Part shown: positions 1,300 through 20,000 of the stretch, in pieces
How positions within the stretch are numbered: position 1 is the first letter of the stretch
Layout: every line of letters starts with the position of its first letter
DNA from: Chiloscyllium plagiosum
Lineage: Eukaryota
Length of the DNA stretch: 20,000 nucleotides
NCBI RefSeq assembly: GCF_004010195.1
Contig: NC_057719.1
Span: 46,836,222 to 46,856,221, forward strand
Direction: 5' to 3'
Notes under the pieces: generated by a model
Databases searched by the model: none
What the model was told of the DNA's origin: nothing
The model's input: only the letters and a program-made list of their open reading frames with translations
Translations under genes and position numbers: made by a program

Positions 1300-1545
1300 C
1301 ATTCTGTGGAATTCTCTGCCCCAGAGTGTGATGGAAAATGAGCCATTGAGTAAGCTTAAGGAGGAGATAGACAGGTTTTTAAATAGGAATGTGTTGAATG
1401 GTTATAGAAAGCGGAGGTGAGGCCATCTGCAGTCCTCACTTTCTCCTCCATGATGAGATCAGCCATGATCATATCAAATGGCAGAGCTGACTTGAGGGAC
1501 TGAATTGCCGACTCCTTCTGCTAGGGTTCTGATGTTCTTATGTTC
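1300..1545 (+). mobile_element. CR1-clade LINE 3' end fragment
   Basis: ctgtggaattctctgccccagag...aaggaggagatagacaggttttt...gatcagccatgatcatatcaaatggc...tgaattgccgactcct...gttcttatgttc: end of ORF2 (WNSLP), 3' UTR and short tandem tail. Homologous to 14272-14430. Confidence 0.85.
1424..1448 (+). mobile_element. Tiny Penelope 3'-terminal fragment inserted in the CR1 3' UTR
   Basis: catctgcagtcctcactttctc matches the reverse complement of 15910-15931 at 21/22. It interrupts the CR1 sequence and cca(t) is repeated on both sides. Confidence 0.75.
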
Positions 1546-3095: not shown

Positions 3096-3335
3096 CCATA
3101 AAGAGAGATCAAGAATCATATAAACTGTGGATCAAATTTCCTGTTTCCACATTCTTGTCCGAGTTTCACATTAGAGCTAAGAGCATAGGTCATGGAAATG
3201 AAGATATCTGGCTTGTAGCATGCACTTGGTTTGTGTCATAACAGCACCCATTAAATGTCAAACTTTTTTTTTAAATTAATGCACCTCGGCCAGTCACAGA
3301 TAAACTAAAGTCAATATGCACACACACCTAAACCA

Positions 3336-3375
3336 TTTCATATCCAACCCAGATGTGATGTAGACTGTCATTAAC
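3336..3375 (+). repeat. 40-bp dispersed direct repeat, copy 1
   Basis: atttcatatccaacccagatgtgatgtagactgtcattaa; 36/40 identical to 6896-6935. Confidence 0.85.
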
Positions 3376-5013: not shown

Positions 5014-5463
5014 ATAGAGTCACAGAGACGTAGAGCACAGAAACAGACCCTTCCGTCCAACTCATCCATGCTGTCCAGAGACCATAAATTAAACTAGTCC
5101 CATTTGCCAGCATTTGGCCTTTGTCCCTCTAAATCCTTGCTATTCATATACCCATCCACATGCCTTTTAAATTTTGTAATGGTACCAGCATCCACCACTT
5201 TCTCTGGCAGCTTGTTCCAAACATGCACTGCCCTCTACATGAAAAAGTTGCCCCTTAGTTCCCTTTTAAACTTTCCCCTCTTACCTTAAACCTATGCCCT
5301 CTAGTTTTTGACCCCCCCTATCCTGGGGAAAAGACCTTGGCTGTTCACTCGATCAATGCCGCTCATAATTTTATAAACTTGTATAAGGACATCCCACAGC
5401 CTCCGACACTCCAGAGAAAATAGTCCCAGTCTATTTTCCCTGTAGTTCAAACTCAACAACCCT
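5014..5463 (-). mobile_element. HER1/CR1 LINE, 5'-truncated (ORF2 C-terminus plus 3' UTR)
   Basis: Reverse complement aligns along its length with about 12530-12979 (e.g. aaacagacccttccgtccaac, aaacctatgccctctagttt, cataattttataaac). Confidence 0.92.
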
Positions 5464-5856: not shown

Positions 5857-6743
5857 GAAATAAAAGAACACTGCAAATGCTGGAAATCTAAGATAAAAAC
5901 AGCAAGTGGCATATATACTCAGCAAGTCAGGCATCATGTGTGGACAGAGGATGGAGTTAACACAGCAGATGTGATTTTCCATTTTGTAGTCTCAGTGTGG
6001 GGCTGAGCATGTTCAGTTGTACCTGACATACACTGAGAAATCCCAGGGGATCATGAGCCAATCAGTGGGCATTATAGCTGACCAGAGGCCCTCAAGGCCT
6101 ATCACGGGATCTGCCAGTGGAGTCCCACATGAGCAGAAGCACTCAAACTACAGCTTCAGGTTCCCAGTGACTGTCAGAAGGCCAAGTCTTTAGGGGATCC
6201 AATGGCAAGAAGGTAAATGGTTTCCTTTTGCTTCTCACAGGGTGGAGGTCATGGTGAAAGGGGTCAGGGGGCTCAGAGATCAAGGCAAAGGACTGGCTTT
6301 CTGAGGCCAGCTATGCTTCTGATTGCTCTCACGTAACAGTAAATGTAGCCCCCACCCTACCCACAACCCACTGGGAGATTTCCCTGGTTTCCCAGACAGA
6401 AAACCAAGCACTTTTCTTGGCTGTAGGCAAGACAAGTTACGTGGGAAGTAGTGATCTGAGGCCTTCAAGCAGCTGTTAATTGAACAATTAAGGGCCTTAA
6501 TTGCTGGTGAGTCAAGAAAGTCCCAAATGGACCTTCTGAGGAGGTGGCTAGAGGAGTGAGGATGGGGCATCACCTCCAGGGCTACATTGCACAGTTTCCC
6601 CTTCTTGTCACTCTTCCAGGGAGGACAAAATTCCACCCATAGTTCTGAAGAAGAATTATAATAGACTCAAAATATTTAGTGTTTCTTTTTCCAAAGATGC
6701 TGCCAGACTATGCCGAGTATTTCCAACGCTTTCTGTTTTTATT
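5857..6743. mobile_element. Penelope-derived inverted-arm element with TSD, containing a ~675-bp internal segment
   Basis: Left arm 5857-5962 (ctgcaaatgctggaaatct...actcagcaagtcaggcatc...gagttaac) and right arm 6641-6743 (agttctgaagaag...gatgctgccagac...ttctgtttttatt) are reverse-complementary Penelope ends. Flanked by actgtagatatt at 5845-5856 and 6744-6755. Confidence 0.85.
5966..6639. mobile_element. Probable non-autonomous DNA transposon (Harbinger-like MITE), decayed
   Basis: More GC-rich block between the Penelope arms. Right end ggacaaaattccaccc has a degenerate counterpart gatgtgattttcc on the left; internal near-palindrome caattaagggccttaattg. Family assignment is from memory. Confidence 0.45.
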
Positions 6744-6895
6744 ACTGTAGATATTAAAATCAGTTAAGAAACCACAGAACACTTTACTATTCCACCCGCT
6801 GAAGCATCAATCTTAAGCATGAAGAAATGCTAACCATAGGACTAGCAAGTTAGGACAGGTCCAACTAATGGAAGTTAAAGAATCATGTTGTTTTA

Positions 6896-6935
6896 ATTTC
6901 ACACCCAACCCAGATGTGAAGTAGTCTGTCATTAA
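6896..6935 (+). repeat. 40-bp dispersed direct repeat, copy 2
   Basis: atttcacacccaacccagatgtgaagtagtctgtcattaa; 36/40 identical to 3336-3375. Confidence 0.85.
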
Positions 6936-7289
6936 TACCACCCTCCACCCACTTCAATTGCTTTGTGGGAGGTACTGAGTGGGTTGCATCTGACCATATT
7001 CCAGCATGAACCATTATCAGAAAGGACAACAAAGGAAAAATTTGGTATTGATAGGAATGGCAGAGTTAATGTTGAAATCTCTACTTCTTCTTCCTGTTTC
7101 TAAAATTACCCTATATTACAAATTGATTGCTAGTTGTATCTGCTACTGCAGACTGCACAAAGCAACTTATGATATATATGAAAATTACTGAATGCCAAAT
7201 GTAGCAACAAAAGTATGTGTGCTAAACTAGTGAGCAGTGACACCAAGATTACAAACAAACTGGCTTAATCTCAGGCTGCTGTCAGGAAT

Positions 7290-7400
7290 AGGGATGGTGT
7301 CAGTAATTTGGGAAGGATAGTACATCTCTTTCCCTGAAGAACTTTAGCAAAGCATTTGGATTTTATGACCATGAATAATAGCTTCATGGGACTGAATTTA
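7290..7400 (-). mobile_element. Old fragment of the tRNA-SINE family seen at 8251-8567
   Basis: gggaaggatagtacatctctttccctgaagaactttagcaaagcatttggattttatgac...gcttcatggg aligns with 8367-8447. Confidence 0.6.
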
Positions 7401-8250
7401 CCAGTTTCTGAATGATGTGGACAATGGTCAATCAGATGAGAAAGTATGAGATCTGTGACATCAAGGGAAAATGTCAGATTTTGCACATGAGATTATAGTG
7501 GTGAGATGAGAATTTCACATGTGAGTATTGAGGGGCCTAGTTTATGCTGCAAATCACTGGTATCTTCTCTATGTATCCATCTTGGCCAGCATTCCCTAAC
7601 AACTCAGGGCAGGTGCATGGGCAGCAACCTGCAAGCTTCGTCCATAGAGGCTGGCAATAGGCATGTACCAGCCTTACCACACCATCATGATATATTTCCA
7701 ACTCATTTATAATGCCGTTCACCACTTCAGTACTGCACTTTGGAGCTCCCCAATGCCTGGCATTGCAGTGTTTCTGCCAAGCTGCTTTGTACGCAATATC
7801 ATAGATTAGACCAGGATGAATCTCAGGGCTTTTAGTTTTCTTTCTTTGTACCTACTTGATTGCTCACAGCATCTCTGCCTTGTCTTTTTGTATACTGACA
7901 TCTCATTCTTAATTTAAAGGCTCATAGTAGTTCTGCCTTGTCTCACTGTTTCGTGACTTCAGAAAGTCAGGCAGCTTGTCATGTTTGCCAGCACTGATCA
8001 GTCAAGGCAGATAAGTTGCTGTACTGTACCATATTCCAACAATGGTCAGACCTGAACAGGCACCAGCAGCTTATATAGCAAACATATATATGAATGTGCT
8101 TCAACCAAGTGAATATGTCTTAAAGTCTAAGGGGAACAGTCATCAGTTAAGTCAAGAGGAACTGTCCTCAGTATAGGGTAGCACAGTTAAACTCCAGTTT
8201 CTGGGGAAAGTTAGCACATGTTCACCGTTGCTAAGAATGGCTTTCAGTTA

Positions 8251-8567
8251 TTTTTTATTCATTTACAGAATGAGGGCTTCTCTGGCTAGGCCACATTTAT
8301 TGCATAGAAGACTGTTAGGAGTCAACCACATTGCTGTGGGTCTGGAGTCACATGTAGGCCAGACCAGGTAAGGGTGGCAGTTTCCTTCCCCAAAGGACTT
8401 TAGTGAACCAGATGGGTTTTACTGACAATTGACAATGGATTCATGGGCCATCTGCAGCCATCTTCCAGCCATCTGCAGTGACAGGTTTCAAACTCAGATC
8501 CCTAGAACATTACCTGGGTCTCTGGATTAACAGTCTAGCAAAAATATTACTAGGCTATCACCTCTCC
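8251..8567 (-). mobile_element. tRNA-derived SINE, near full length
   Basis: On the minus strand: box A-like tagcctagtaa, box B-like gagtttgaaacc, body aaacccatctggttcactaa...ggtctggcctacatgtgactccagacccacagcaatgtggttgactc, and A-rich tail gaataaaaaa. Confidence 0.85.
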
Positions 8568-8668
8568 TTAGTTCTAGATTTAGTCATTGAATCTCAATTC
8601 CACCAGTTGCATCGGTTGGATTTGAAGATGTGTCCCAAGAGCATTAGCCAAACTCTCTAGATTATTAG

Positions 8669-8813
8669 GTCTGCGGATGCTGGAGATCAGAGTTGAGAGT
8701 GTGTTGCTGGAAAAGCACAGCAGATCAGGCAGCATCCGAGGAGCAGGAAAATAGACGTTTCGGGCAAAAGCCCTTCATCAAGAAAAATGTCGATTCTCCT
8801 GCTCCTCAGATGC
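8669..8813 (-). mobile_element. Short hairpin-shaped Penelope end with 14-bp TSD
   Basis: Homologous to 19235-19326 and 15910-16024. 8785-8812 is an inverted copy of 8733-8760. TSD ctctag(a/g)tta(t/c)tag at 8655-8668 and 8814-8827. Confidence 0.9.
8754..8781 (-). ncRNA. Minimal hammerhead-ribozyme-like core (Penelope-associated), C3U variant
   Basis: Minus strand reads UUGAUGA-A-GGGC-UUUU-GCCC-GAAAC-GUC: hammerhead core, perfect stem II, palindromic ACGU stem III and GUC triplet. Stem I is poor in this copy. Confidence 0.7.
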
Positions 8814-8974
8814 CTCTAGGTTACTAGTCCAGTTAATAACACTACGCCATTGTCTCAGGTAAGCAGTCTGCTAGATTAGCAATAGCAAAGCCATCAAAAG
8901 GGACAGTGATTAAATAGAGCTGACAGCGGTCACCATACATGTGAAAGTAAGTCTCCTCTTTTAAATAATGTCAT

Positions 8975-9300
8975 TAAGGGACAAGATGTGGATGAAAGCA
9001 GAAAGGAGTCATAGATTATTGAAAGCGTAGGTAGTGTTGTGGTAGTGGGAAAAAAAGATTAGATCAGCAAGAATGGAACCAGATGGGAGCTACCCCAACC
9101 TGAATAAGAATGGAGGAGAGGTTTGAAGATGATGGTGTGGTCAGCTGAAGCAAAGGCTGCAGCCAGGTCAAAAAAGACCAGGAGGGAAAGGTTCTCATTG
9201 TCACAATCATAACGAATGTTATTGTTTTATTTTAATTCCTGTTTTGATACTGTGACAGGTGGGGAGACCTAATTGGACAGTACATTGAAGAAAGGTAAAT
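8975..9300 (-). mobile_element. L2-clade LINE reverse transcriptase fragment
   Basis: Minus strand: VQLGLPTCHSIKTG ... IRYDCDNENLSLLVFFDLAAAFASADHTII ... APIWFHSC*, matching QSGFRxxHSTETAL / LLDLSAAFDTVDH / WFxSYLS. Frameshifts and stops present. Confidence 0.85.
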
Positions 9301-9694
9301 GAAGGTATTTCTGAAGAGCAATATACAGAGAGGGTCCTTTGTTTACTGGAGCCCATGATGTAAAACATTCTGTGGCAGACATCATAATGAACTCCTGTTA
9401 AAAGTGTGTAAAACTGCCTCTTTATTCAGTACAGTCCTAGAATTCCAATACTTAAAATTGTAATGTCTCTAACAGCTGAATGATCAATATTATGCTAATG
9501 AGAAAGAAGACAACAGTAAACACACCCGTACATTAAACCTGTTTTGAAAATCTTGGGAAACAGACTGATTTCATAATAATCATATCTTTTACTCTTCTTC
9601 CCCATCCCACACAACAATGGCATGTTCCCATAGCTTACAGCGACCTTTCAAAATGTGATAAGTAAGACAAAAAACTTACATTTTCTCCTCACCA

Positions 9695-9810
9695 AACCAG
9701 AAGCACCAGGGTCTGCTATAGTCCAATAACAACATCCTGACTGAGATCAGCAGACATAGCACAGACCAGGAGTCAGTCTTTCTGGTTTCTACAGTTCAGA
9801 AACACTAGAT
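9695..9810 (-). mobile_element. Fragment of another old SINE-like repeat
   Basis: gactgagatcagcagacatagcacagaccaggagtcagtctttctggtttctacagttcag resembles the antisense of the head at about 15515-15600. Confidence 0.4.
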
Positions 9811-12406
9811 CAGAAGATGAGCCCTGGGTTAATAGGATGTAATAGCTGGATCTTCATCTATATGAGTACCCTATTTTGAGATCTTATGTTATGATCTTAC
9901 AAAATCAAAGCAGATTAATTTTATCCTAATGACATCTTTAGTATCATTAATGACATAGCCATTCCAGAAATCAGAACTGGTACATAAAGGTGCATTTAGT
10001 CTTTACAAAAAAAAGTCCTCTGGCTTACAACTCTGTAATAAAATGCTGATTTTTAATACCAAGACAATAATAATATTCTACATGTATTTGGACAAGCGCA
10101 CACACAAAAAATAATTTCTTAACATTTACACAAGAAAATTATTGTTTGTTAGAAGAGAGTATTCCAAATAAGCCATTGGACATTTTCCATCATTGAACCC
10201 CTGTAGATAAAAATCTGTATTGTCTTCAAATATGTGCATAGCTGTGTGTAAAGACAATAGTTACACAACTCAAAGCACCTTTGCATTCTTATTGTGATGG
10301 GTCACAAAGCTTGCTACCTGTGGGAGACAGCTATTTCCATGATTAGCTCATCATATCATCATGTGCTGCCAACACCAGTGAACCTCTCCCCATTCCTGTC
10401 CTCAAATGCCTTGGTGATTACAACTCTAATGTATAATTCAACAACAGTTCAAGTGTTCATCACCATAATAACAAGGCAAGCAGGATAGCAAAGAGGCACA
10501 TCACAAAGAGCAAAAGCTTTTGGGTCCATTAATTAGATGACAACACTTCAGAAGGGGGGGGGGGGAAAACTAGTAGCAAATACTTAGGTAAATTCTGAAT
10601 GACATTAGTTGAAAAAGTTTTGAATGAGTTGTGTGCAAATGCATTGAAGCAGTAATGTGAGGAGATGAATGTGTGGGAAGGTGAATAAAGTAGTTGAAGT
10701 GTGAGGATGTTTGTGACATTATAATGCATTGATAGGCTTAAATTAAGCTTAACTTTAGATTTTCACTCAAAAAATCCAGACAGTTCACCAATGGTGATTT
10801 AAAATATAACAGGCACCCTGATACCTTTCTGTAAGAATTTTCTTTACCTGTAACAACTGACAACAACAAAATCAAACATGAACAGGGATTTGTGTTTTAT
10901 TTAAAATAGCTTTTATTTGCCAGAGTAAAATTCAGCCCACTTATCAGAAACAAACATTGTATCATGTCAAACTGAGAAATAGAATTATTTTAAGAGCTAT
11001 ATTTAAATGCAATTCACCTGAAATCAGCCAAACCAGTATAACAATCAATAAATTTGAAATGCTAATTAAGTCCAGTGTAAGTTGAAGTTCAGCGATTTTC
11101 TGCTCTCATTTAAAAAACATCTGAAGAAGTCTCCCTCTACAAAACTGGACACACCCCTCACATCAATTGAGTTCGATTGGTAAGTTTCCACAAGTTGTCC
11201 CATTGCAAGCTTGCGAGCAGGGTCTTAAAATGAAGATGTTTTTTGGAAGCAAAATATTTAAAAGCTTGTAATTTCTTTTAAAGTTACCAAGAGAATGACT
11301 ACTGCATGCCAGCTTGGTTAATAAATGTTGTGTATCGATCTTAAACTAAACCCCTTTACCTTTTCTTTCCAGTTATTTAAGATTGAGTTGAGCACAAGTG
11401 GTAAACTAAACACTGATCTAAATTTGATTTCTTTTCTAGTGTTCACCACTTCAATCATTAAGATATTCCAGCTGGCCATTCTTAAATATGCCAAGGAATT
11501 ATTCCAATACAAAAAATTAAGTTCTAAACTGTTGCCCAATCACATGAACGCATGGAAGATTTTAAATTCATCAATACTCAAGTGAATTTGAGCAGAAATC
11601 TACGCAACAAAAATACTTCTTAAGACTAGTACAACTGTGAGCATAATTTTTGCCCAAACCACCAATTGTGTCCAAACCAGAACTCTTGGTCACAATCGCT
11701 TGATTTTGTTCATTTCCACAACAATTATTTAGCTGTTTGTAATCAAAAATAAGGTGCATTGTTAAAGTGCTTACACAATATTATGCATGATCACTTGATT
11801 AACATATTGTATTACACATTCAATTTCATCACATAAATACATTGCATTGTTTTGTAGTATTGTTTGAACTGCAGTGCTTAACACTGAGTTTTGAAATTGA
11901 GGTAACATATATCTTTTCTATATGTCCAATAGTGTTTGTTTTGCCTTATGTTGTGTTTTGGTTCTTAGATTGCGTGATCTTCCTGTGCTTTCTCTTACAG
12001 TCACATAGGATTATTTTAATTCTCTAGTTGGAAAGTTAGTCTGATTATGGCCTTCGGGATCAGTCTGTTTCTCTTTAGCCTGCTCCCCCTCCCCTGAGTA
12101 GCAGACAGTTAGTGTCATTTGTTGTTTATCTCCTTGCTGTCATCCTGTCTTTTTGCATAATGCAGGAAGGAAAATACATTGACAGAAATGTATTAGGTCA
12201 AGAAGCTATTCCACAATACAAAATTCTCTTTGAGAAACCTTCTACAGAAGTTAAACCAGCACAATGCAGGAGGCAGGGTTTTAGGATGCCGGTGTAATGA
12301 ATGCCTCATTCTTAATGCAACAACCACCTTGCTGAGTGGAGGCAAGGATCTAGTGAGAGCTCTGATCCAACAAATCATGCTTACCAACTAAAACAGATGG
12401 AGATTT

Positions 12407-12460
12407 ATCATAGAATACTACAGCAAAGGAGGCCACTTTGTCCATCTTCTGTGTCAGTCA
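12407..12460 (-). mobile_element. CR1 3' tail fragment
   Basis: atcatagaatactacagcaaaggaggccactttgtccatc; same tail type as 4659-4720. Confidence 0.55.
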
Positions 12461-12483
12461 TTTTCTACTTGTGAATGATTTCA

Positions 12484-12979
12484 CTGTGAAACTTGAAAGG
12501 GTTCAGAAAGGATTGCCGAGGATGTTGGCAGGGTTGGAGGGTTTGAGCTACAGGGAGAGGCTGAATAGGCTGGGGCTGTTTTCCCTGGAGCATCAGAGGC
12601 TGAGGGGTGATCATATAGAAGTTTATAAAATCCTGAGGGGCATGGATAGGTTGAATAGGCAAGGTCTTTTTTTCTTGAGGTGGGGGAGTCCAGAACTAGA
12701 GGGCATGAGTTTAAAGTGAGAGGGGAAAGATTTATAAAGGACCAAGGGGGAAATACTTTCACACAAGGGATGGTGTGTGTTTGGAGAGAACTGTCAGAGG
12801 AAGTGGTGAGGCTGGTATAATTACACCACTTAAAAAGCATCTGGTTGGGTATATGAATAGGAAAGGTTTGAAGGGATATGGGCGAAATGGATCTAGATTT
12901 ATATAGGATATCTGGTCGGCGTGGACAATTTGAATCAAAGGGGCTGTTTCCGTGCTGTATATCTCTATGACTCTATGAC
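12484..12979 (+). mobile_element. HER1/CR1 LINE, 5'-truncated (ORF2 C-terminus plus 3' UTR)
   Basis: Translates as VKLERVQKGLPRMLAGLEGLSYRERLNRLGLFSLEHQRLRGDHIEVYKILRGMDR, the canonical CR1 ORF2 C-terminus, then frameshifts. Ends in ctgtttccgtgctgtatatctctatgactctatgact. Confidence 0.95.
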
Positions 12980-14271
12980 TGTAATCTCATATTCGTGTTT
13001 CCATCCTGCTTCGGTTAATAAATTGCCTTATTTAGACAACTACCGGACTCTTGCTTCAATGATTTGTGCACGCCAACAACAATTTGTAGCAGAGAATTCC
13101 ACATTCTCATCTGCCTCTGTGTATAGCTGTATTATATTACCTCCCTTTGGTTTTTGGCTATTTTGATGTTGTACTTTTGACAAACCAATAAACTACAGAA
13201 TTTCTTCCCAATATTGTACATATAGGTACAATCTGCATTTTAAATATTTTAATATCATTGAAAAGAAACATGGTGCAGTTTTTCCCTACAAGAGGACAGA
13301 AGTCAGATTCTCACCATTGAGAGAAACTCCCACAAATAAGTTCTCCTTTCTGAAATAGAGGGATCGAATTCTCACCACCCGGTGAGCAGCAGTCTATTGG
13401 CATGTTGCTGCATCTCACTAATTATATAATTGGTCTTATTCACTTACTTCCCAACTAATGTCTTCCCAGTTGAGAAACCCACTAGCTCAAAAACTTGACA
13501 TTAACAAATGCTTGGTTATCTGTCAAATTCGATCGAGCCTGGGCAAATTCTGCCATATATTGCCTTTTGATGAAGGATGTTCCAAAGACAATCCGTCCAT
13601 GTGCCCAAAATGTCAGAGTAATTTCAGGGACTCCAGTCTCAGTAATGACTGCCAAGTTACCATTCATTCTGAGAATGCTTCTTTTAAGAGATTGTCCATG
13701 ACCATCCTTCACACTATAATGATACTAGACTGGTCCCTTGCTGTACCTTAGCATCCTAGCTGTCAAAACTCAAACTACAAAAAGCTCTGATTGGCTAACA
13801 TGCTCACTACAGAAGTTAGGGAATGCATAAAAGTGAACATGTGAGTTTATCATTGTTTACCATTTAGATACATTGCAGCATTTCTTTGAGAAAGCAGGCA
13901 CAGGATAAATTTTCGCTTGCAAAATATATGGAAGCATCACACTGCCAACTTTCCCATCAAATAAGTCTGAGAGGTGAATGATGACAGAATGAGCTATATT
14001 CACTCCTGCAACATCACTTCCTTTTGCTATCTGAATGTCTATCACATCTTTCTATTAGATCATAACTAGGTTTTCTAAGATTAATAAAAAGACTAAAGCA
14101 GATGCTATAACAGTGCAAGTAAATGTGTATTTACAAAAATGGTCTATTTATAAATTGACTTTATGTTTGTGTCATTGATGTGGTTCCAGCACATGAGTTT
14201 AGGTTATAAACTTAGGGTCATTATTCATGTTGGTCAATGATTGCCAACAAGACTTTATGACAAAGGACTGC

Positions 14272-14430
14272 AGAGGTTGGTTCAAGGCTGAGATTGACAG
14301 ATTTTTAATCAGTAAGGGCTATGTAGGCAAGGCAGGCAAATGGACCTGAGAATTATCAGATTAGCCATGATCTCTTTGAATGGTGGAGTCGTAACTGAAT
14401 GGTCTCCTTTTGCTCCTATGTATTATGGTC
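14272..14430 (+). mobile_element. CR1-clade LINE 3' end fragment
   Basis: ttcaaggctgagattgacagatttttaatcagtaaggg...cagattagccatgatctctttgaatggtggag...tgaatggtctccttttgctcctatg; homologous to 1355-1545. Confidence 0.85.
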
Positions 14431-14950
14431 CTAAAACATAAGTTGTGAGGAACCACGTTAAAAATCCTGATAACTTTTCTTGCCAACTAAATGAGGTGGT
14501 GACGGGGGCAGTGCTGTGGTTTGGAAATGTTATATTTATGCACAAATCAAGCAATATATGTTAAAACACAATGCATGGAGGGTGTCCAAGTTTAAATATT
14601 TTGGAGGATGAAAAGAAAACAAGGTTGGAAGTGAAGTGGAATAGCTCAGTCCATTACCTGTACACAATTCCACAATATATAAGTAAACATAACCTACACA
14701 TAGACACTAAAATCAACAGAAGAACCTGTGAAATATGGTAAACTTATTATAGGTAATCGCCCATTACAAAAACAGATGTTCAGAACAGGCTGGAGTGTAA
14801 CAAAAACTAAATAAGATTCTTAAATAAATTAGAAGTAATAACTTGTAATTACTTAAATCATAGATTTGTCTTAATGCCAACACATTCATTATCATCTTTT
14901 CTTAGCTTGCAATATTCTTGATAGATTCTTTTCCATTCTTTATAATAAAT

Positions 14951-15373
14951 AAAAAAGACTTGCTTTTAAATTAAATTTTTCACAATCACCAGCTATTTCA
15001 AAATGCTTTCCAATCAAGTAGCTTTAAAAGTTCACCTTTGTAATTCCAGCTGCCAATTTGTCCACACAAATAACAATGTGACAGTGACCAAATCATCTGA
15101 CTTTTGATGTTGATCAAGGAATCATCATTGATCAAAGCACTAGGGAAAACGTCCCTGCTGTTCTTCAAAGTAATGCAGTTGGATCCTTTATATCCATCTG
15201 AGAAGGCAGACAGACCTGAATTTTAATATTGTAGCTGAAGGTTGTACTTGGAATGGGACACATTCTCTCTCACAGTACCAGAAAGTCAGCCTTGATTTCT
15301 ATGGTTAAGATGTGTAATAGGACTTGAATCCAGCATCTTCTGATTTAGGGGGATTGTTCTACCAAACAACCAC
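14951..15373 (-). mobile_element. DeuSINE (SacSINE1-like), full length, diverged
   Basis: Tail aaaaaagacttgc, cagctgccaatttg, Deu-like core ccctgctgttcttcaaag...ggatcctttatatccatctgagaaggcagac, and head ggacttgaatcc (box B antisense). All parts are co-linear. Confidence 0.85.
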
Positions 15374-15513
15374 ATGTGAAATGCGTAGTAAATATAGTAA
15401 TGATGCATGTTATTAAAAAGGTTCACTGTCATTTTAATACTTTTTCATATACATATGTACATCATTGCTTATGAGAGCAAATGCTAATGTCCAGAAACCC
15501 CTGAGGTTGTTGA

Positions 15514-15800
15514 TGGCTCAGTTTGTTATGAATTTGTATAACTGAGCCAGACAGATCAATAGTCTGAGGCTAAACTGCAAGTTTACACAGAGTCAGAAAG
15601 AGCAATAACCTCTACAGATTGTTTCAGAATCCTTCGATTGGAGAGGGATTCCCTGTCCTGATGTCTATCCTTTGACAGTTTCAGTAATGTCCTTAGATGG
15701 CAGGCAAACTCCGATTCACAATAGCTGTCATGGGGCCAGGGGACATAGCTGACTAACCTTCACCACCTAGGTTTCACCAGAGCAATAACACTCCTCTGAA
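15514..15800 (+). mobile_element. Old SINE-like repeat
   Basis: Starts with box A-like tggctcagtttg followed by actgagccagacagatc. Loosely resembles a common shark SINE from memory and the antisense of 9695-9810. Confidence 0.4.
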
Positions 15801-15909
15801 GTGATGTGGAAAAATGTGATGTGATCCCAGGTCAAATCCAAAACTTGTGCAAAGAGGAGACAAAGAGTTTTATTTTAATGAGATTTTAATTTGACTCAAT
15901 TATATTTTA

Positions 15910-16069
15910 GAGGAAGTGAGGACTGCAGATGCTGGAGATCAGAAGCAAAAAGTGTGGAGCTGGTCAGGCAGAATCCAAGGAGCAGGAGAGTTGATGTTCA
16001 TTAAGAAAGCCCTTCATTAGGAATGACTCTGCTGCTCCTCGGATACTGCCTGATCTGCTGTGCTTTTCA
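15910..16069 (-). mobile_element. Short hairpin-shaped Penelope end with 16-bp TSD
   Basis: gaggaagtgaggactgcagatgctggagatcag...gcccttcattaggaat followed by inverted arm gactctgctgctcctcggatactgcctgatctgctgtgcttttc (16025-16068). TSD actcaatta(t/a)atttta at 15894-15909 and 16070-16085. Confidence 0.9.
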
Positions 16070-16879
16070 ACTCAATTAAATTTTATCCACGATTAAAGTT
16101 CTGATAGTTCTGCAGCAAACATTGTTTGAATTAAAACGAAGGCCCTTTCTGATGTCAGGAACATCTCTCTCTGTCTTTTATGGTTTTGACAAATGGCGCA
16201 GTGAGTTCCTTGTGTTAAGTTGATATTCAAGGGGATTATTGCTTGTTAATAGACCAAGTCACCGCATTAATATTCAGCTTCTTCCCTATCAAGTGTGCCA
16301 GACAAGCTAGACATTGAGAAATGGACATCTGGCGATTTCAGTTTGCCCTGAAGGACTCCATGTTTTGTAAGACCAAACAACATCTCAAAGCACGGGCACC
16401 AGCTGCATACCCAGACATTGGCATCCTGCATTTGTCAGGTCATCATGACTATCATGGGTCTTCTCCAATACACTGGCAAGGATTCGGAAGCACAGACGTC
16501 TAATGCAGAGCACACCAGCAACTAGCATTGAAAAGCTGCAGCGGGTACACTCTGCGTCTCGGGATAGGCCTTCGATTCATGGATTGGACCAGGCTGAATC
16601 TAAAGGCTGCTCACTCAGTCTCCATGCACTCGGACACTTTGTATGCTTGTAGTGTCCGTGGCCTTGCCTTGCTGGTTTACTTCGTGCAGTCTCACAACCA
16701 GGCAGCTTGCCTTGCTGCTCAGCTGTCCTGAGCCAAGCGGATGGATATCTTGCTGTACAGCGGCCTATTATTGCCAATCTCACACCCACTCCATGGGCCA
16801 GCAGCTCATGTGGCAAACATGCAGCATGTTGAGCAAGCCGGCAGCCATGGCTTAAAGTCTTCGGGGATTAGTCTTCACC

Positions 16880-17990
16880 AAAATCCGTCAGTCAGGGGTT
16901 CCAGCACAGGAAGTCAAGGGCAGCCACCGAAACCAGTCCAGGGAATTGGTATTGGTCAGGCATCCAGACAGGGTGTTCTTGGCCAAGGGCTCCATGCCTC
17001 TGGGTCACGGTCAGTCCTGTGGCGCAGTGGCAGCCAGACCAGAGGTTTAGGGAAACTGCGGTCAGACATATACAGCCACTAGCACTTCTCACCTGCTCAG
17101 TGTGTGGTTCCTCCTCGAGTTAGATACCTCCTTGAGAGGTAGCAGCACTGGAGTGTCCACCAGGTTCCCCACACCACTGTCGCTACACCCTGAGTCCACA
17201 CTTTCCGAGCTTAGCATTTCCACCAAGGTGTCACTGTCCAGGTCGGTGGAAGGTTTTGGGGACAGCCTTACTGACAGTCCCTCTGACACCCTCGGTACTC
17301 AAGTCCTCAAAGGTCAAGGAGGTGACTTCTGAGGAACGGGGTATTTCATTGCCATTGCAGTGGAGATACTGGCAGTACCTGCAAGACACAAGTGAGAGAA
17401 TGCATCGAGGTCATTGATTAGAAGTGGTGTGCAATGAATGAGACTAACAGCAGAGTTAATGTGAGAGTTGCAGTGCAGTGAAGAGTGGAACTCTTGTTTA
17501 GCTTGGATAGCAGGAGTACCAGATTCCCCTACAAGGACCAGGATTCTCTCTTCATACAGGGTGAAGCATCTCTCCAGCCACATGAAATATCACTGCCCTT
17601 TTATGGGCCGTTTTCTCCTCTAGCGGGAAAAGGGAGGGATTGAGGGAGATGAAAGTGGTCCGATACTGTTGGTGCAGGTGGTCAAAAGGTTGTGTGAGGT
17701 ATTAGTGGTCAGGCATCCAGTCAGGATTTCTTGGTCAAGAGGCAATGATAAGGCAGTGCAGAGGTCACGCAGGGTTAGGGGGCAGGAGGTTTATGGGCAG
17801 CAGAATTTGGGGGGGGGGCAAGTGAGGGAAGATGTTGCAGGTAATGGAGAGAGTGCCAGAGCATAAACCTTGGAGGGAGGGGGTGCAGTCAATGTGATAT
17901 AGCAGAGACAAGCATGGGGCACTTACCCTGGCTCAGTGGAGAAGATTATTGAAAGGACATCCCGAGATTCCTTCCAGTCAGTGATCACTG
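16880..17990 (-). pseudogene. Decayed PIF/Harbinger transposon Myb/SANT-like accessory gene with introns
   Basis: Exon ending ...FNNLLH*AR|gtaagt (donor 17926-17921). Phase-0 acceptor at 17619-17618 then EKTAHKRA and, after a frameshift, FTLYEERILVLVGE. Second acceptor tgtcttgcag at 17388-17379 then LSPKPST... Matches the remembered FNDL..AR / EK.AHN / LTP.EER.L pattern. The GC-rich block continues to about 16250. Confidence 0.65.
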
Positions 17991-18100
17991 AATTCAGCTG
18001 CATGTGTGCACTCTTGGGGTGGCTTTGTTGTAATTTTCCTCAAGATCGAATGGTCTCATTGCTACTCATTGAGTCCAAATTAAACAAAGAATTCCCTCTG

Positions 18101-19153
18101 GACAAAAAAACCAAACGAACAGCAGATGCGAGAAATCTGGACCGAACGGTCTGTTTCCGTGCTGTCCATCTCTCTGACTCTATGACTGTAAATCGTTGGA
18201 AAAGATCAATGGGTTTAAAGTTTTGGGTCCAGTGACCAATCTTCGGAACCAATGGCAACGAGGAAAAGGATGCTTTTTATATAGAAGATCGCGTGGGGGG
18301 GAGGGGGGGGGAGGGGGAGAGTCAACAACAGGAGGAGATAGAACCCAAAGAAAAAGGAACAGTTCAACAGCCAAAGGAGTGGTTCACGCTCAGTCTGGGG
18401 AAATGAATGGCTGCTAATGGGAACAATTAGTGGCTGACAGTTGGTAGTGTGTAATGACAAGGCCTAGTGTGTGTGGGAATGGGGAAAAGCACAGGAAAAG
18501 GTGCTCAAACTCTAACATTGTTGAATTCAATCTTGAATCCAGAAGGCTGCAAAATTCCCAAGCAGAAAATGGGTACTGTCCTTTCGGCTTGCACTGAGGC
18601 AAGCTGGATTCGCTGGAGGCACTGAGACAGATGTTGGCCAGGGAACAGGGTGGCGTATTGAAGTGACAGGCAACTGGAAGCTCAGGGTTTTGTTTGCGGA
18701 TAGAACATTGGTGTTCTGTGAAGCAGGCAACAAGTCTATGCTTCATTTCCCCAATGTAGAGGAGACCACATTGTGAGCAGTGAGTGCAGTTGGCTAGATT
18801 GAGAGAAGTGTAGGTAAAGCACTGCTTCACCTGGAAGGTATGCTTAAGCCCTTGGATATTGATGAGGGAGGAGGTAAATGAGCAGATGTTACAGCTTCTG
18901 CGGTTGCAGCGGAAGGGGCTGTAGTCAGGCGTTGGGAGTGAAGGAGGAATGAACCAGCATGTCCTGGAGAAAACGGTCTTTGCAGAAGGCTGACAAGGAA
19001 GGGGAGGGGAATATGTGTCTGGTGGGGGCTTCCTGCTGGAGTGGCAGAAACAGCAGTTAATGATCCTCTGGATGTGAATGCTGGTGAGATGGTAGGTAAG
19101 GACAAGGGGGACCCTATTATTGTTGTGGGAGGGAAGACAGGGAGTGAGGGCTT
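18101..19153 (-). mobile_element. Penelope-like element, 5'-truncated, GIY-YIG endonuclease region plus 3' repeat, 14-bp TSD
   Basis: ORF 18414-18830: FTYTSLNLANCTHCSQCGLLYIGEMKHRLVACFTEHQCSIRKQNPELPVACHFN (YIG motif). Perfect TSD aagaattccctctg at 18087-18100 and 19154-19167. Confidence 0.95.
18138..18188 (+). mobile_element. HER1/CR1 (or HE1-type SINE) 3' tail nested in the Penelope end
   Basis: tggaccgaacggtctgtttccgtgctgtccatctctctgactctatgact matches 12930-12979. aaatc occurs on both sides. Confidence 0.85.
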
Positions 19154-19298
19154 AAGAATTCCCTCTGTTACCTGATTCAGTGGTCACTTTTCATCTGAGA
19201 GCTTCAATACTGCATATTGGCTACTTGACTCCTGGAGTCGAGAATGTAGTGCTGGAAAAGCACAGCAGGGCAGGCAGCATCCGAGGAGCAAGAGTATC

Positions 19299-19326
19299 AA
19301 CGTTTCGGGCATAAGCCCTTCATCTG
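19299..19326 (-). ncRNA. Minimal hammerhead-ribozyme-like core, U4A variant
   Basis: Minus strand reads CAGAUGA-A-GGGC-UUAU-GCCC-GAAAC-GUU, with palindromic AACGUU. Confidence 0.65.
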
Positions 19327-19488
19327 AAGGAGGCTTGTGTGTCGGGGCTGAGAGATAGATGGGAGGGGGGTGAGTTTGGGAGCAAGGTAGCTGGGAAAGT
19401 GATAGGTGGTTGAAGGTGAGGGAGAAGGTGATAGGTCAGAGGAGGGAGTGATGGACAGGTCCAGAGGGCGGTGCCGAGTTGGAGGCTT

Positions 19489-19864
19489 GTGACTGGGATA
19501 ATGTGGGGCGAGGGGAAATGAGGAAGCTGTTGAAAACCAGATTTATCCCATGTGCGGGAGTCCCAGAGATGTTCTCTGATATGATCTGCAGGAAGGTGTC
19601 CTGTCTCCCCAATGTAGAGGAGACCACATTGAGTGCCTTATATGCAGTAGATGACATTGGGAGAGGTACAGGTAAAGTGACTGGGATAATGTGGGGCGAG
19701 GGGAAATGAGGAAGCTGTTGAAAACCACATTTATCCCATGTGCGGGAGTCCCAGAGATGTTCTCTAATATGATCTGCAGGAAGGTATCCTGTCTCTCCAA
19801 TGTAGAGGAGACCACATTGAGTGCCTCATATGCAGTAGATGACATTGGGAGAGGTACAGGTAAA
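19489..19864. repeat. Tandem duplication, 2 x 188 bp
   Basis: Units 19489-19676 and 19677-19864; I count 5 substitutions and no indels. Confidence 0.97.
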
Positions 19865-20000
19865 TTTCTGATGGATGTGGAAGGGTCCCTTGGGGCGTTA
19901 AACGGAGGTGAGGGGATTGGTGTGGGTGCAGGTTTTGCACTTCCTATGGTGGCAGGGAAAGGTGCCAGGAGTGGGGTGAGGGCTGGTGGGGGGTGTGGAC

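Follow-up and report, generated by a model that had tools for sequence, protein, structure and literature searches.

The 20,000-nt stretch of Chiloscyllium plagiosum DNA analysed here (the window; contig NC_057719.1) holds five hammerhead-ribozyme-like cores, named below by the position of their first letter. They fall into two groups, A (8781, 16020 and 19326) and B (6645 and 18246). The first-pass annotation of this DNA had given letters and coordinates for four clear sites (8781, 19326, 6645 and 18246), all of which were correct on re-reading, and had mentioned a fifth, heavily decayed copy, whose core we placed at 16020-15993 on the minus strand. It had also assigned the sites to the ends of Penelope-like elements (PLEs), and a GIY-YIG frame does lie directly upstream of cores 19326 and 18246. 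The extra base after A9, claimed for the four clearer copies, is present in 5/5, and every copy in the window has a core lesion as stated there (0/5 complete cores).

The best preserved minimal hammerhead core of group A is at 8754..8781 (minus strand). Its GAAA box and GUC triplet are intact and stem II has 4/4 pairs, with U replacing C3 and the first stem I pair broken. The core at 19299..19326 (minus strand), located 3' of an endonuclease frame, also has an intact GAAA box and 4/4 stem II pairs; here A replaces U4, the triplet is GUU and two of the first four stem I pairs form. The third group A core (15993..16020, minus strand) is heavily decayed, with A5, a broken GAAA box and 1/4 stem II pairs, and shows 61% identity within repeat family D2. 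The group B core at 18217..18246 (minus strand) is decayed (C4 and A12); stem II has 4/5 pairs, the closing 10.1-11.1 pair being lost, and stem I 3/4. A short, group B-like copy at 6636..6741 (plus strand) includes the core at 6645-6676, in which the first box is intact, position 12 is A and stem II has 4/5 pairs, one of them G.U.

Across the five copies of the window, the CUGANGA box is intact in one (6645) and the GAAA box with G12 in two, both of group A; both group B copies have A12. G10.1-C11.1 closes stem II in 3/5 copies (stem II pairs 4/4, 4/4, 4/5, 4/5 and 1/4). The 15.2-16.2 pair is C-G in 8781 and 19326, U-A in 6645 and broken in 2/5, and U16.1 and H17 of the NUH triplet are kept in 5/5. 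Of the first four pairs of helix I, the five copies form 1, 2, 2, 3 and 2.

By itself, the motif is not clearly above chance. In the window, a loose hammerhead descriptor gave no perfect match against a mean of 0.13 in 15 shuffles, 6 matches at up to one mismatch (shuffle mean 2.8, maximum 6; 3/6 unrelated to the five cores) and 48 matches at two mismatches (shuffle mean 28.5), a level at which the 16020 site was still not recovered. The matches at 502, 3874 and 10362 were rejected as within chance expectation and without model support. What does stand above chance is the repeat context, that is, family D2 and the pairwise alignment scores, together with the matches of two cores to R1, a hammerhead model from other organisms' elements. 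R1 matched core 8781 with 39.3 bits (E 1.2e-09) and core 19326 with 32.4 bits (E 1.5e-07); these E-values are rough and the model is partly circular, because the pattern used to collect its training loci was itself derived from the cores of the window. R1 gave no full-length match for 6645, 18246 or 16020. A search of the stretch with Rfam at E up to 10 gave 11 matches, none of them to a hammerhead family; those to microRNA precursors (8735-8811 and 15967-16050) were rejected, as they are far below gathering scores and reflect fold-back hairpins.

One reading of these numbers is that 6645, 18246 and 16020 are chance look-alikes and that only two sites are real relics. Loose descriptor matches are indeed common, the three sites lack a full-length model match, and the regions of 6645 and 18246 fold no better than shuffles. 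However, 16020 sits in register with the two good copies within family D2, and 18246 is preceded by a PLE endonuclease frame, with other copies correcting towards the core letter. The 6645 core is followed by a PLE-type 3' segment, and the 6636..6741 copy aligns above shuffle maxima both with 5861-5955 (score 51, shuffle maximum 31) and with the A copies (scores 33 and 32, shuffle maxima 28 and 26). We give the look-alike reading only a very slight chance. Cores 6645 and 18246 were grouped by inspection, because their mutual alignment score of 22 is not above the shuffle level (29).

The stem II covariation proposed in the first-pass annotation was not borne out: the five-copy covariation score was 0.275, with 188/500 shuffles as high, in a test of five rows that are too few for power. 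The share of paired cells (62.5%) was likewise at shuffle level, being equalled or exceeded in 348/500 shuffles. The two intact group A stems are identical, and a two-sided change occurs in only two stem II pairs. Outside comparators came from a metagenome scan for the motif, which found at least 122 loci, probably of invertebrate origin. When the loci listed were compared with the window by blastn, 3 short matches were obtained, and none from these C. plagiosum families was among the matches listed. In 16 hand-picked distinct motifs among the listed metagenome contigs, 4/4 pairs covary in stem I, a part of the motif left unconstrained by the search pattern. Two scans of viral contigs gave 0 matches to group B motifs.

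Two cores have a GIY-YIG/CCHH frame with a CX4CxxC linker on their 5' side and on their own strand. In the group A element, a broken GIY-YIG endonuclease region at 19449..19960 (minus strand), with the CX4CxxC linker and stop codons, matches proteins combining reverse transcriptase (RT) and GIY-YIG by tblastn at E to 6e-18. It includes a 188-bp tandem duplication (19489-19864; repeat D1), and the element extends past the window end. The group B linker and GIY-YIG/CCHH endonuclease at 18414..19151 (minus strand) form a stop-free, 5'-truncated frame that is frameshifted near its end and has 620 relatives at E up to 0.001. Among 12 scanned homologues, 8 matched both RVT_1 and GIY-YIG at E up to 0.01, and 11 matched Pfam GIY-YIG at that threshold, 2 of them above the curated cut-off. 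A linker of the CX2-5CxxC type, present as CX4CxxC in both the A and B frames, occurs in 91 of the 107 homologues with enough upstream sequence to show it. Pfam gave no match on the six frames of the window, and no RT part was found there (tblastn matches cover linker and endonuclease only), so that the clade assignment rests on the linker. A search for longer homologous proteins gave one match among 21 candidates, to a chimeric-looking protein.

Downstream of the cut site, the group A 3' segment at 19235..19298 (minus strand) belongs to repeat family D2 and is without the terminal tail extension. The group B 3' segment and tail occupy 18103..18216 (minus strand; repeat D4), where the outer part was read as tail by inspection; a 58-bp piece of another repeat (18134-18191), also found at 12927-12984, interrupts it. 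We identified a sixth PLE end, absent from the first-pass annotation, at 5862..5961 (minus strand): a group B 3' segment with tail and no core, whose start lies about 3 nt ahead of the predicted cut site. A lone fragment of the group A terminal tail at 1425..1449 (plus strand) shares 19/20 positions with the tail of the copy at 15911 (score 36, shuffle maximum 24).

Two fold-back insertions are present in the window, both with a tail at one end only. The first, at 8667..8815 (inverted repeat I6), has core and terminal tail on the minus strand (8667-8784) and an inverted arm (about 8785-8815) whose start lies within the GAAA box; the insertion forms a single long hairpin in which the cleavage triplet is paired (z -5.66; 0/200 shuffles as stable). 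The second, at 15911..16074 (inverted repeats I4 and I5), has core and tail on the minus strand and an inverted arm from 16025, whose first base directly follows the predicted cut site; the joint is exact only to a 2-nt microhomology and hence ambiguous in position. An intact ribozyme inside the fold-backs was rejected, as the stem I strand is either paired within the hairpin or displaced by it. The 5' ends of copies, like the fold-back junctions, seem clustered at the 5' edge of the ribozyme.

Other genomic copies were read from two DNA runs. The first-pass annotation had inferred that subfamily consensi encode active ribozymes; at both readable lesions (19325 and 18245) the other copies hold the core letter, with U4 in the majority at 86-94% of depth. 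At 19325, U4 accounts for 34537/40199 (86%) and 21342/22717 (94%) depth units, supported by 88 and 91 contigs, and at 18245 for 3565/3833 (93%) and 1888/2205 (86%); RNA reads show U4 at 19325 in 12/13. Since other copies carry the core U4, these two lesions are specific to the copies in the window. The group A loose-end consensus has C3, GAAAC and GUC, so that at the family level the CUGANGA box has U4 at 19325 and 18245 by majority and C3 in this consensus. In the majority form of group A, stem I has 3/4 pairs and one U.U mismatch.

Other copies have two types of 3' end, as indicated by loose ends before 19235 and 19249, and opposite-strand joints also recur in them. Summed depth in run X1 is 6.6 million over the 3' segment vs 17,000-111,000 in three bins upstream of the core, and because of this excess we conclude that most copies are short. 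Contigs matching these ends number 58,872 and 50,043, counted on 1.4 kb of sequence in which part of another repeat is also present. Truncated and fold-back copies are many, and their inverted 5' arms and one-end tail match PLE anatomy (PMC8557442, PMC11167929).

The shortness of most copies could also mean an independent non-autonomous family, retrozyme or SINE-like, spread via its own ribozyme-processed RNA, and animal retrozymes have been proposed to derive from PLE ends (bioRxiv 10.64898/2026.07.22.740005). These non-LTR retrozymes, reported in one chondrichthyan genome (same preprint), likewise are short non-coding units related to PLEs, with a type I hammerhead. They form tandem arrays with a core in each unit, whereas the copies in the window are dispersed or fold-back and no core is complete. 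We consider such a family very unlikely here: there are no tandem monomers in the window, where cores lie 3.3 and 7.2 kb apart, the joints of short copies are varied and their sequence is common to endonuclease-linked copies, and the cut site is buried in the long hairpin of the fold-back copies.

The five sites are instead very probably dead, 5'-truncated PLE 3' ends (pseudo-LTR, pLTR) from at least two endonuclease-bearing families with a Neptune-type linker, whose parents had a minimal type I hammerhead. Minimal hammerheads (min-HHR) in the pLTRs of metazoan PLEs, including Xena, Poseidon and Neptune of fish and elements of coelacanth and Xenopus, were already described in 2014 (Cervera and de la Pena 2014, PMC4209133), and the present case is ordinary, adding as found one more vertebrate genome to that class. 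The first-pass annotation had named this same class, and the A core fits the published consensus (PMC4209133, supplement file 2). The majority form of group A also fits the published minimal hammerhead, but with a weak stem I. Shared with min-HHR (PMC4209133) are CUGANGA, the unpaired base after A9, G10.1-C11.1, GAAA (at least in group A), the NUH triplet, a palindromic 15.2-16.2, no loop 3, and mostly single truncated copies with some opposite-strand pairs. Unlike those min-HHR, group A has a weak stem I, and stem II is shorter here (4-5 bp) than in most of the vertebrate rows compared from the supplement (5-8 bp). Supplement file 2 of that paper has no shark, Callorhinchus, Squalus or Leucoraja entry. 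A literature search found no paper on a shark PLE hammerhead, nor any on truncation junctions at PLE hammerheads; subscription papers were mostly outside its scope, as were repeat databases, so that absence from print is not implied.

With Neptune/Nematis-type PLEs that have a C-terminal endonuclease (EN+; Craig et al. 2021, PMC8557442), these elements share the CX2-5CxxC linker before a GIY-YIG/CCHH endonuclease, a hammerhead near the 3' end, 5' truncation, an inverted 5' copy and a 30-40 bp tail at one end. Unlike them, the window is without RT or a full pLTR-ORF-pLTR unit, and the Neptune likeness is one of the linker. The Poseidon element PAc of the green anole (Frangieh et al. 2024, PMC11167929) also has its hammerhead about 100 nt before two alternative, tail-defining 3' ends, and also shows no RNA ends at the cut site. 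Poseidon lacks the CX2-5CxxC linker present here, and PAc has been assayed while the families here are known from sequence.

In the parent families, the hammerhead would comprise both boxes of the core, with a base left unpaired after A9, a stem II of 4-5 bp and a short stem I, and would have no stem III of its own. Since ACGU at 15.1-16.1 is self-complementary, two RNA copies could supply stem III mutually. From published work on other PLEs, we infer that in a live element two cores in a tandem transcript would pair, probably with the help of the element's protein, and cut slowly after the NUH triplet; the PLE hammerheads described so far either cut slowly as dimers or depend on the element's protein (PMC4209133, PMC11167929). 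After insertion, the copies presumably decayed neutrally, with CpG loss as the likely source of the G12 and 15.2/16.2 changes (CpG observed/expected is 0.20), and probably none of the five cuts.

It is possible, though not probable, that the family motif is hammerhead-shaped but non-catalytic, at least in A (weak stem I) or in B (native A12), and serves in protein binding, priming or translation start, or is simply carried along at the element 3' end. This would agree with the U.U mismatch in the majority stem I of A and with A12 in both B copies. In the anole PLE, hammerhead mutants insert unaffected in vitro, and the motif is uncut without protein and shows no RNA-seq ends at the cut site (PMC11167929). 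We likewise found no pile-up of RNA starts or ends at the cut site, a weak negative because the single library was a fragmented poly(A) single-cell library of which 2 in 100 reads were used. On the other side, published PLE hammerheads include forms with a 2-bp helix I (PMC4209133 supplement), one of which cut once helix III was extended (PMC4209133), and A12 occurring twice is expected decay, because C11.1-G12 is a CpG in a CpG-depleted genome.

Within the preferred reading of dead PLE ends, the hammerhead region may itself set the 5' boundary of most PLE copies, although we regard this as unlikely. Reverse transcription, or the endonuclease cutting at ATT a few bases 5' of the core, would end most insertions at the ribozyme 5' edge, and some group A fold-back arms would start at the cut site. 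If this is true, 5' junctions clustered at the cut site would be rare in vivo evidence of PLE hammerhead cleavage, a point left open by published in vitro work; the genome, with its millions of dead ends, would document the sites of ribozyme folding and cutting in vivo, and this boundary record would be a readout for the open question of PLE hammerhead function. The tens of thousands of matching contigs are in any case material for per-position selection and insertion-start mapping.

In run X1, depth in the element body is 60- to 390-fold lower than over the 3' segment, and the loose-end consensus persists about 7 letters 5' of the core. In an unrelated family, 40/43 inverted arms (34 loci) have their start at -7 to +21 relative to C3, but 0/43 start within 3 nt of the cut site, and 31/47 other matches share at most 13 nt upstream; assemblies favour short copies and the search pattern demanded an intact core, which also counts against the boundary reading. 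A further point against it is that the complementarity of stem I can by itself prime a fold-back. In its favour, the inversion joints with the best support (19 contigs in X1 and 16 in X13) are compatible with an arm start near the cut site, and in the window one of the two fold-backs begins at this site or adjacent to it, as does the 5862-5961 copy.

On re-reading the window, the letters given in the first-pass annotation for four clear hammerhead-like cores match exactly; the heavily decayed fifth core it reported near 15993-16021 is also present and is placed at 16020-15993 on the minus strand. Named by their first base, none of the five is complete, as had been proposed: 8781 (minus strand) carries U3, 19326 (minus) A4, 18246 (minus) C4 and A12, and 6645 (6645-6676, plus) A12; in 16020, A occupies position 5, the GAAA box is broken and one of four stem II pairs is left. 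G12 is the hammerhead general base (PMC6155905). All five copies should be inactive, and the triplet in the fold-back at 8667-8815 is also buried in a long hairpin (fold z -5.66). The unpaired base after A9, claimed for the four clearer copies, occurs in all five.

As bare motifs, the sites hardly exceed chance. A loose hammerhead descriptor found no perfect match in the window and six with at most one mismatch (mean 2.8 and maximum 6 in 15 dinucleotide shuffles), three of which are sites of the first-pass annotation, and a comparison with Rfam at E up to 10 returned 11 matches, none of them to a hammerhead family. We take the sites as real because of their context: 8781, 16020 and 19326 lie in register within one 90-nt repeat family (direct repeat D2), and a covariance model trained on 16 motifs from other organisms, partly circular since its loci had been fetched with a pattern based on the window cores, matches 8781 at 39.3 bits and 19326 at 32.4 bits (next-best window match 12.8 bits). 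This model gave no full-length match in the window for 16020, 18246 or 6645. That the three weak sites are chance look-alikes is nonetheless highly improbable, as they carry the context of Penelope-like retroelements (PLEs).

The description of the sites as Penelope ends holds, with a minus-strand GIY-YIG endonuclease frame preceding cores 19326 and 18246. Searching with the 117-residue piece at 18600-18950 gave 620 relatives with E no higher than 0.001; Pfam GIY-YIG occurs in 11 of 12 scanned homologues and RVT_1 as well in eight of them (E up to 0.01, many below curated cut-offs). Tblastn with nine of the 12 matched both window frames and found no reverse transcriptase part in the window. 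In both frames CX4CxxC precedes the nuclease, and 91 of the 107 homologues with enough upstream sequence also have the linker; a linker of this type, common to Neptune, Nematis and the window frames, is absent from Penelope/Poseidon (PMC8557442). A 40-nt, 85% match to the window endonuclease region 19641-19680, at L031:1013-1052 and about 400 bases upstream of the hammerhead of that metagenome locus, ties the outside family to a comparable PLE. The group A endonuclease region also contains a 188-bp tandem duplication (19489-19864, 97% identical) that repeats the GIY-YIG core.

The five sites are thus very probably decayed PLE ends carrying a minimal hammerhead, a motif that sits in flanking repeats of metazoan PLEs without helix III (PMC4209133). 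The feature is real and ordinary, a further instance of a kind described in 2014; no shark or ray is named in supplement file 2 of that paper. The short copies could alternatively represent an independent retrozyme-like family, which is very unlikely: tandem units define animal retrozymes (bioRxiv 10.64898/2026.07.22.740005), whereas the window contains none. The supplements of that preprint may list the chondrichthyan families.

Over about 70 bases the two endonuclease frames share 75-78% identity, so at least two families, A and B, are present, presumably of a shark-like type. Group A comprises cores 8781, 16020 and 19326 and a lone 25-nt tail fragment (1425-1449, plus strand), whose flanks presumably resemble the 3' region of a CR1-type LINE. 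Group B comprises 18246, 6645 and a sixth PLE end at 5862-5961 (minus strand), which has a tail and no core and whose start lies some 3 nt ahead of the predicted cut site. Core 6645 was grouped with 18246 by inspection, their alignment score of 22 being under the shuffle maximum of 29; against 5861-5955 it scores 51 (shuffle maximum 31). Two group A insertions (8667-8815, 15911-16074) fold back on themselves and bear a terminal tail at one end only, an arrangement described for PLEs (PMC8557442).

Covariation of stem II, as claimed earlier, is not borne out by the five-copy alignment: 62.5% of cells pair (reached by 348 of 500 shuffles) and the covariation score is 0.275 (188 of 500). In two stem II pairs both sides change, which is consistent with genuine differences between families and, in so small a set, with decay too; the group A stems that remain intact, two in number, have the same sequence. 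The 16 outside motifs, hand-picked as distinct from at least 131 matches in at least 122 loci, score 0.627 (0 of 500 shuffles), with two-sided changes in all four stem I pairs, which the search pattern left unconstrained; the first three stem I positions pair in 92 of 130 outside matches among those listed. This supports the motif class, not the window's families.

Other genomic copies were read from four runs aligned to 18080-19480 at 80% likeness, covering two of the five sites, with base differences taken among the rows listed (119 others). At 19325 in these copies, U4 accounts for 34537 of 40199 depth units (DNA run X1, 88 contigs), 21342 of 22717 (DNA run X13, 91 contigs) and 12 of 13 reads (RNA run X21), and at 18245 for 3565 of 3833 and 1888 of 2205 depth units (X1, X13). 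In the group A loose-end consensus, C3 is present, GAAAC is intact and the triplet is GUC; AUUC precedes the core, as in 16020 itself, and GAUU follows the cut site. The majority stem I is therefore C-G, U-A, U.U, A-U, which is weak, but supplement file 2 of PMC4209133 aligns hammerheads that include 2-bp helices. In group B, the 5' strand of 6645 is complementary over four bases to the 3' strand of the 5862-5961 copy, and A12 lies at a CpG in both core copies, which suggests decay; window CpG observed/expected is 0.20. Two further scans of viral contigs found no group B motifs. RNA reads on 18080-19480 come from both strands, and 99 in 100 continue into unlike sequence, which fits passenger transcription of dead copies; starts or ends pile up nowhere on this stretch, a weak test of cleavage. 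X22, recorded as the same sample as X21, has 0 reads on the repetitive stretch (X21, 2216).

As monomers, minimal PLE hammerheads show no activity, and as dimers they cleave slowly (PMC4209133); a review states likewise and cites dimer cleavage (PMC6765202). The anole element's hammerhead cuts only with protein present and is dispensable for insertion in vitro, and two reverse-transcription start sites define its tail (PMC11167929). The family-level motif could be a non-catalytic relic or have a protein-binding role, which is compatible with PLE-end identity and which we consider fairly unlikely. We lean towards parent forms that were catalytically competent in some context. What the data show directly is the element anatomy, its tie to an endonuclease, lesions private to individual copies and a wealth of short and inverted copies. 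In a live element, ACGU would let two cores of a tandem transcript pair, probably with the protein assisting, and they would be cut after the triplet; the endonuclease would nick DNA, and reverse transcription, with two possible start sites (about 65 and 100 nt downstream of the cut), would usually stop early and leave truncated ends as in the window, which would then decay.

It is conceivable, if quite doubtful, that the hammerhead region sets the 5' boundary of most PLE copies, with some group A fold-back arms arising from the cut site. Summed depth in X1 drops from 6.63 million (19255-19301) through 0.74 million across the core to 17,000-111,000 (19349-19480); such depth is not copy number and can reflect alignments shortened by differences of the window's own copy. 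In both DNA runs the loose-end consensus holds for about seven letters 5' of the core. The three opposite-strand joints listed (884 others) connect 19324 to 19287-19290, with 19 contigs from X1 and 16 from X13, and are compatible with an arm starting near the cut site; within the window, the arm of one fold-back begins at the cut site (16025) and that of the other within the GAAA box (about 8785). Among the matches listed for the main outside family, 11 of 101 were dropped for short flank; an inverted arm lies close upstream in 43 of the remaining 90 (34 loci), starting between -7 and +21 of C3 in 40 and within 3 nt of the cut site in none, and in the other 47, upstream sharing is limited to 13 nt in 31 and extends to 20 nt or more in 14. 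To produce such a pattern, assembly bias and the priming of fold-backs through stem I would be enough. ATT lies a few bases 5' of the core in both families considered, and the anole endonuclease prefers ATT (PMC11167929). A literature search found no paper on such junction clustering, which is little evidence. Metagenome contigs also contain head-to-head intact minimal cores 10-30 nt apart (L001:601-666, L038:601-666, L077:601-673 and similar loci), with fold-back anatomy as in the window and junctions concentrated at the core's 5' half.

Other repeats of the window include a 58-bp piece common to 18134-18191 and 12927-12984 (84% identity), which probably derives from a LINE or SINE 3' end; the copy at 18134-18191 lies inside the group B 3' segment, splitting it, and is very abundant in the aligned runs. 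Two old LINE-like 3' region copies lie on opposite strands at 5111-5456 and 12543-12889 (inverted repeats I1-I3, 75-79%), and a frame at 12414-12719, which had no match in a Pfam search of window frames, presumably resembles CR1-type reverse transcriptase C-termini. A 40-nt direct repeat, D5 (90% identity, 3335-3374 and 6896-6935), is unrelated to the PLE ends.
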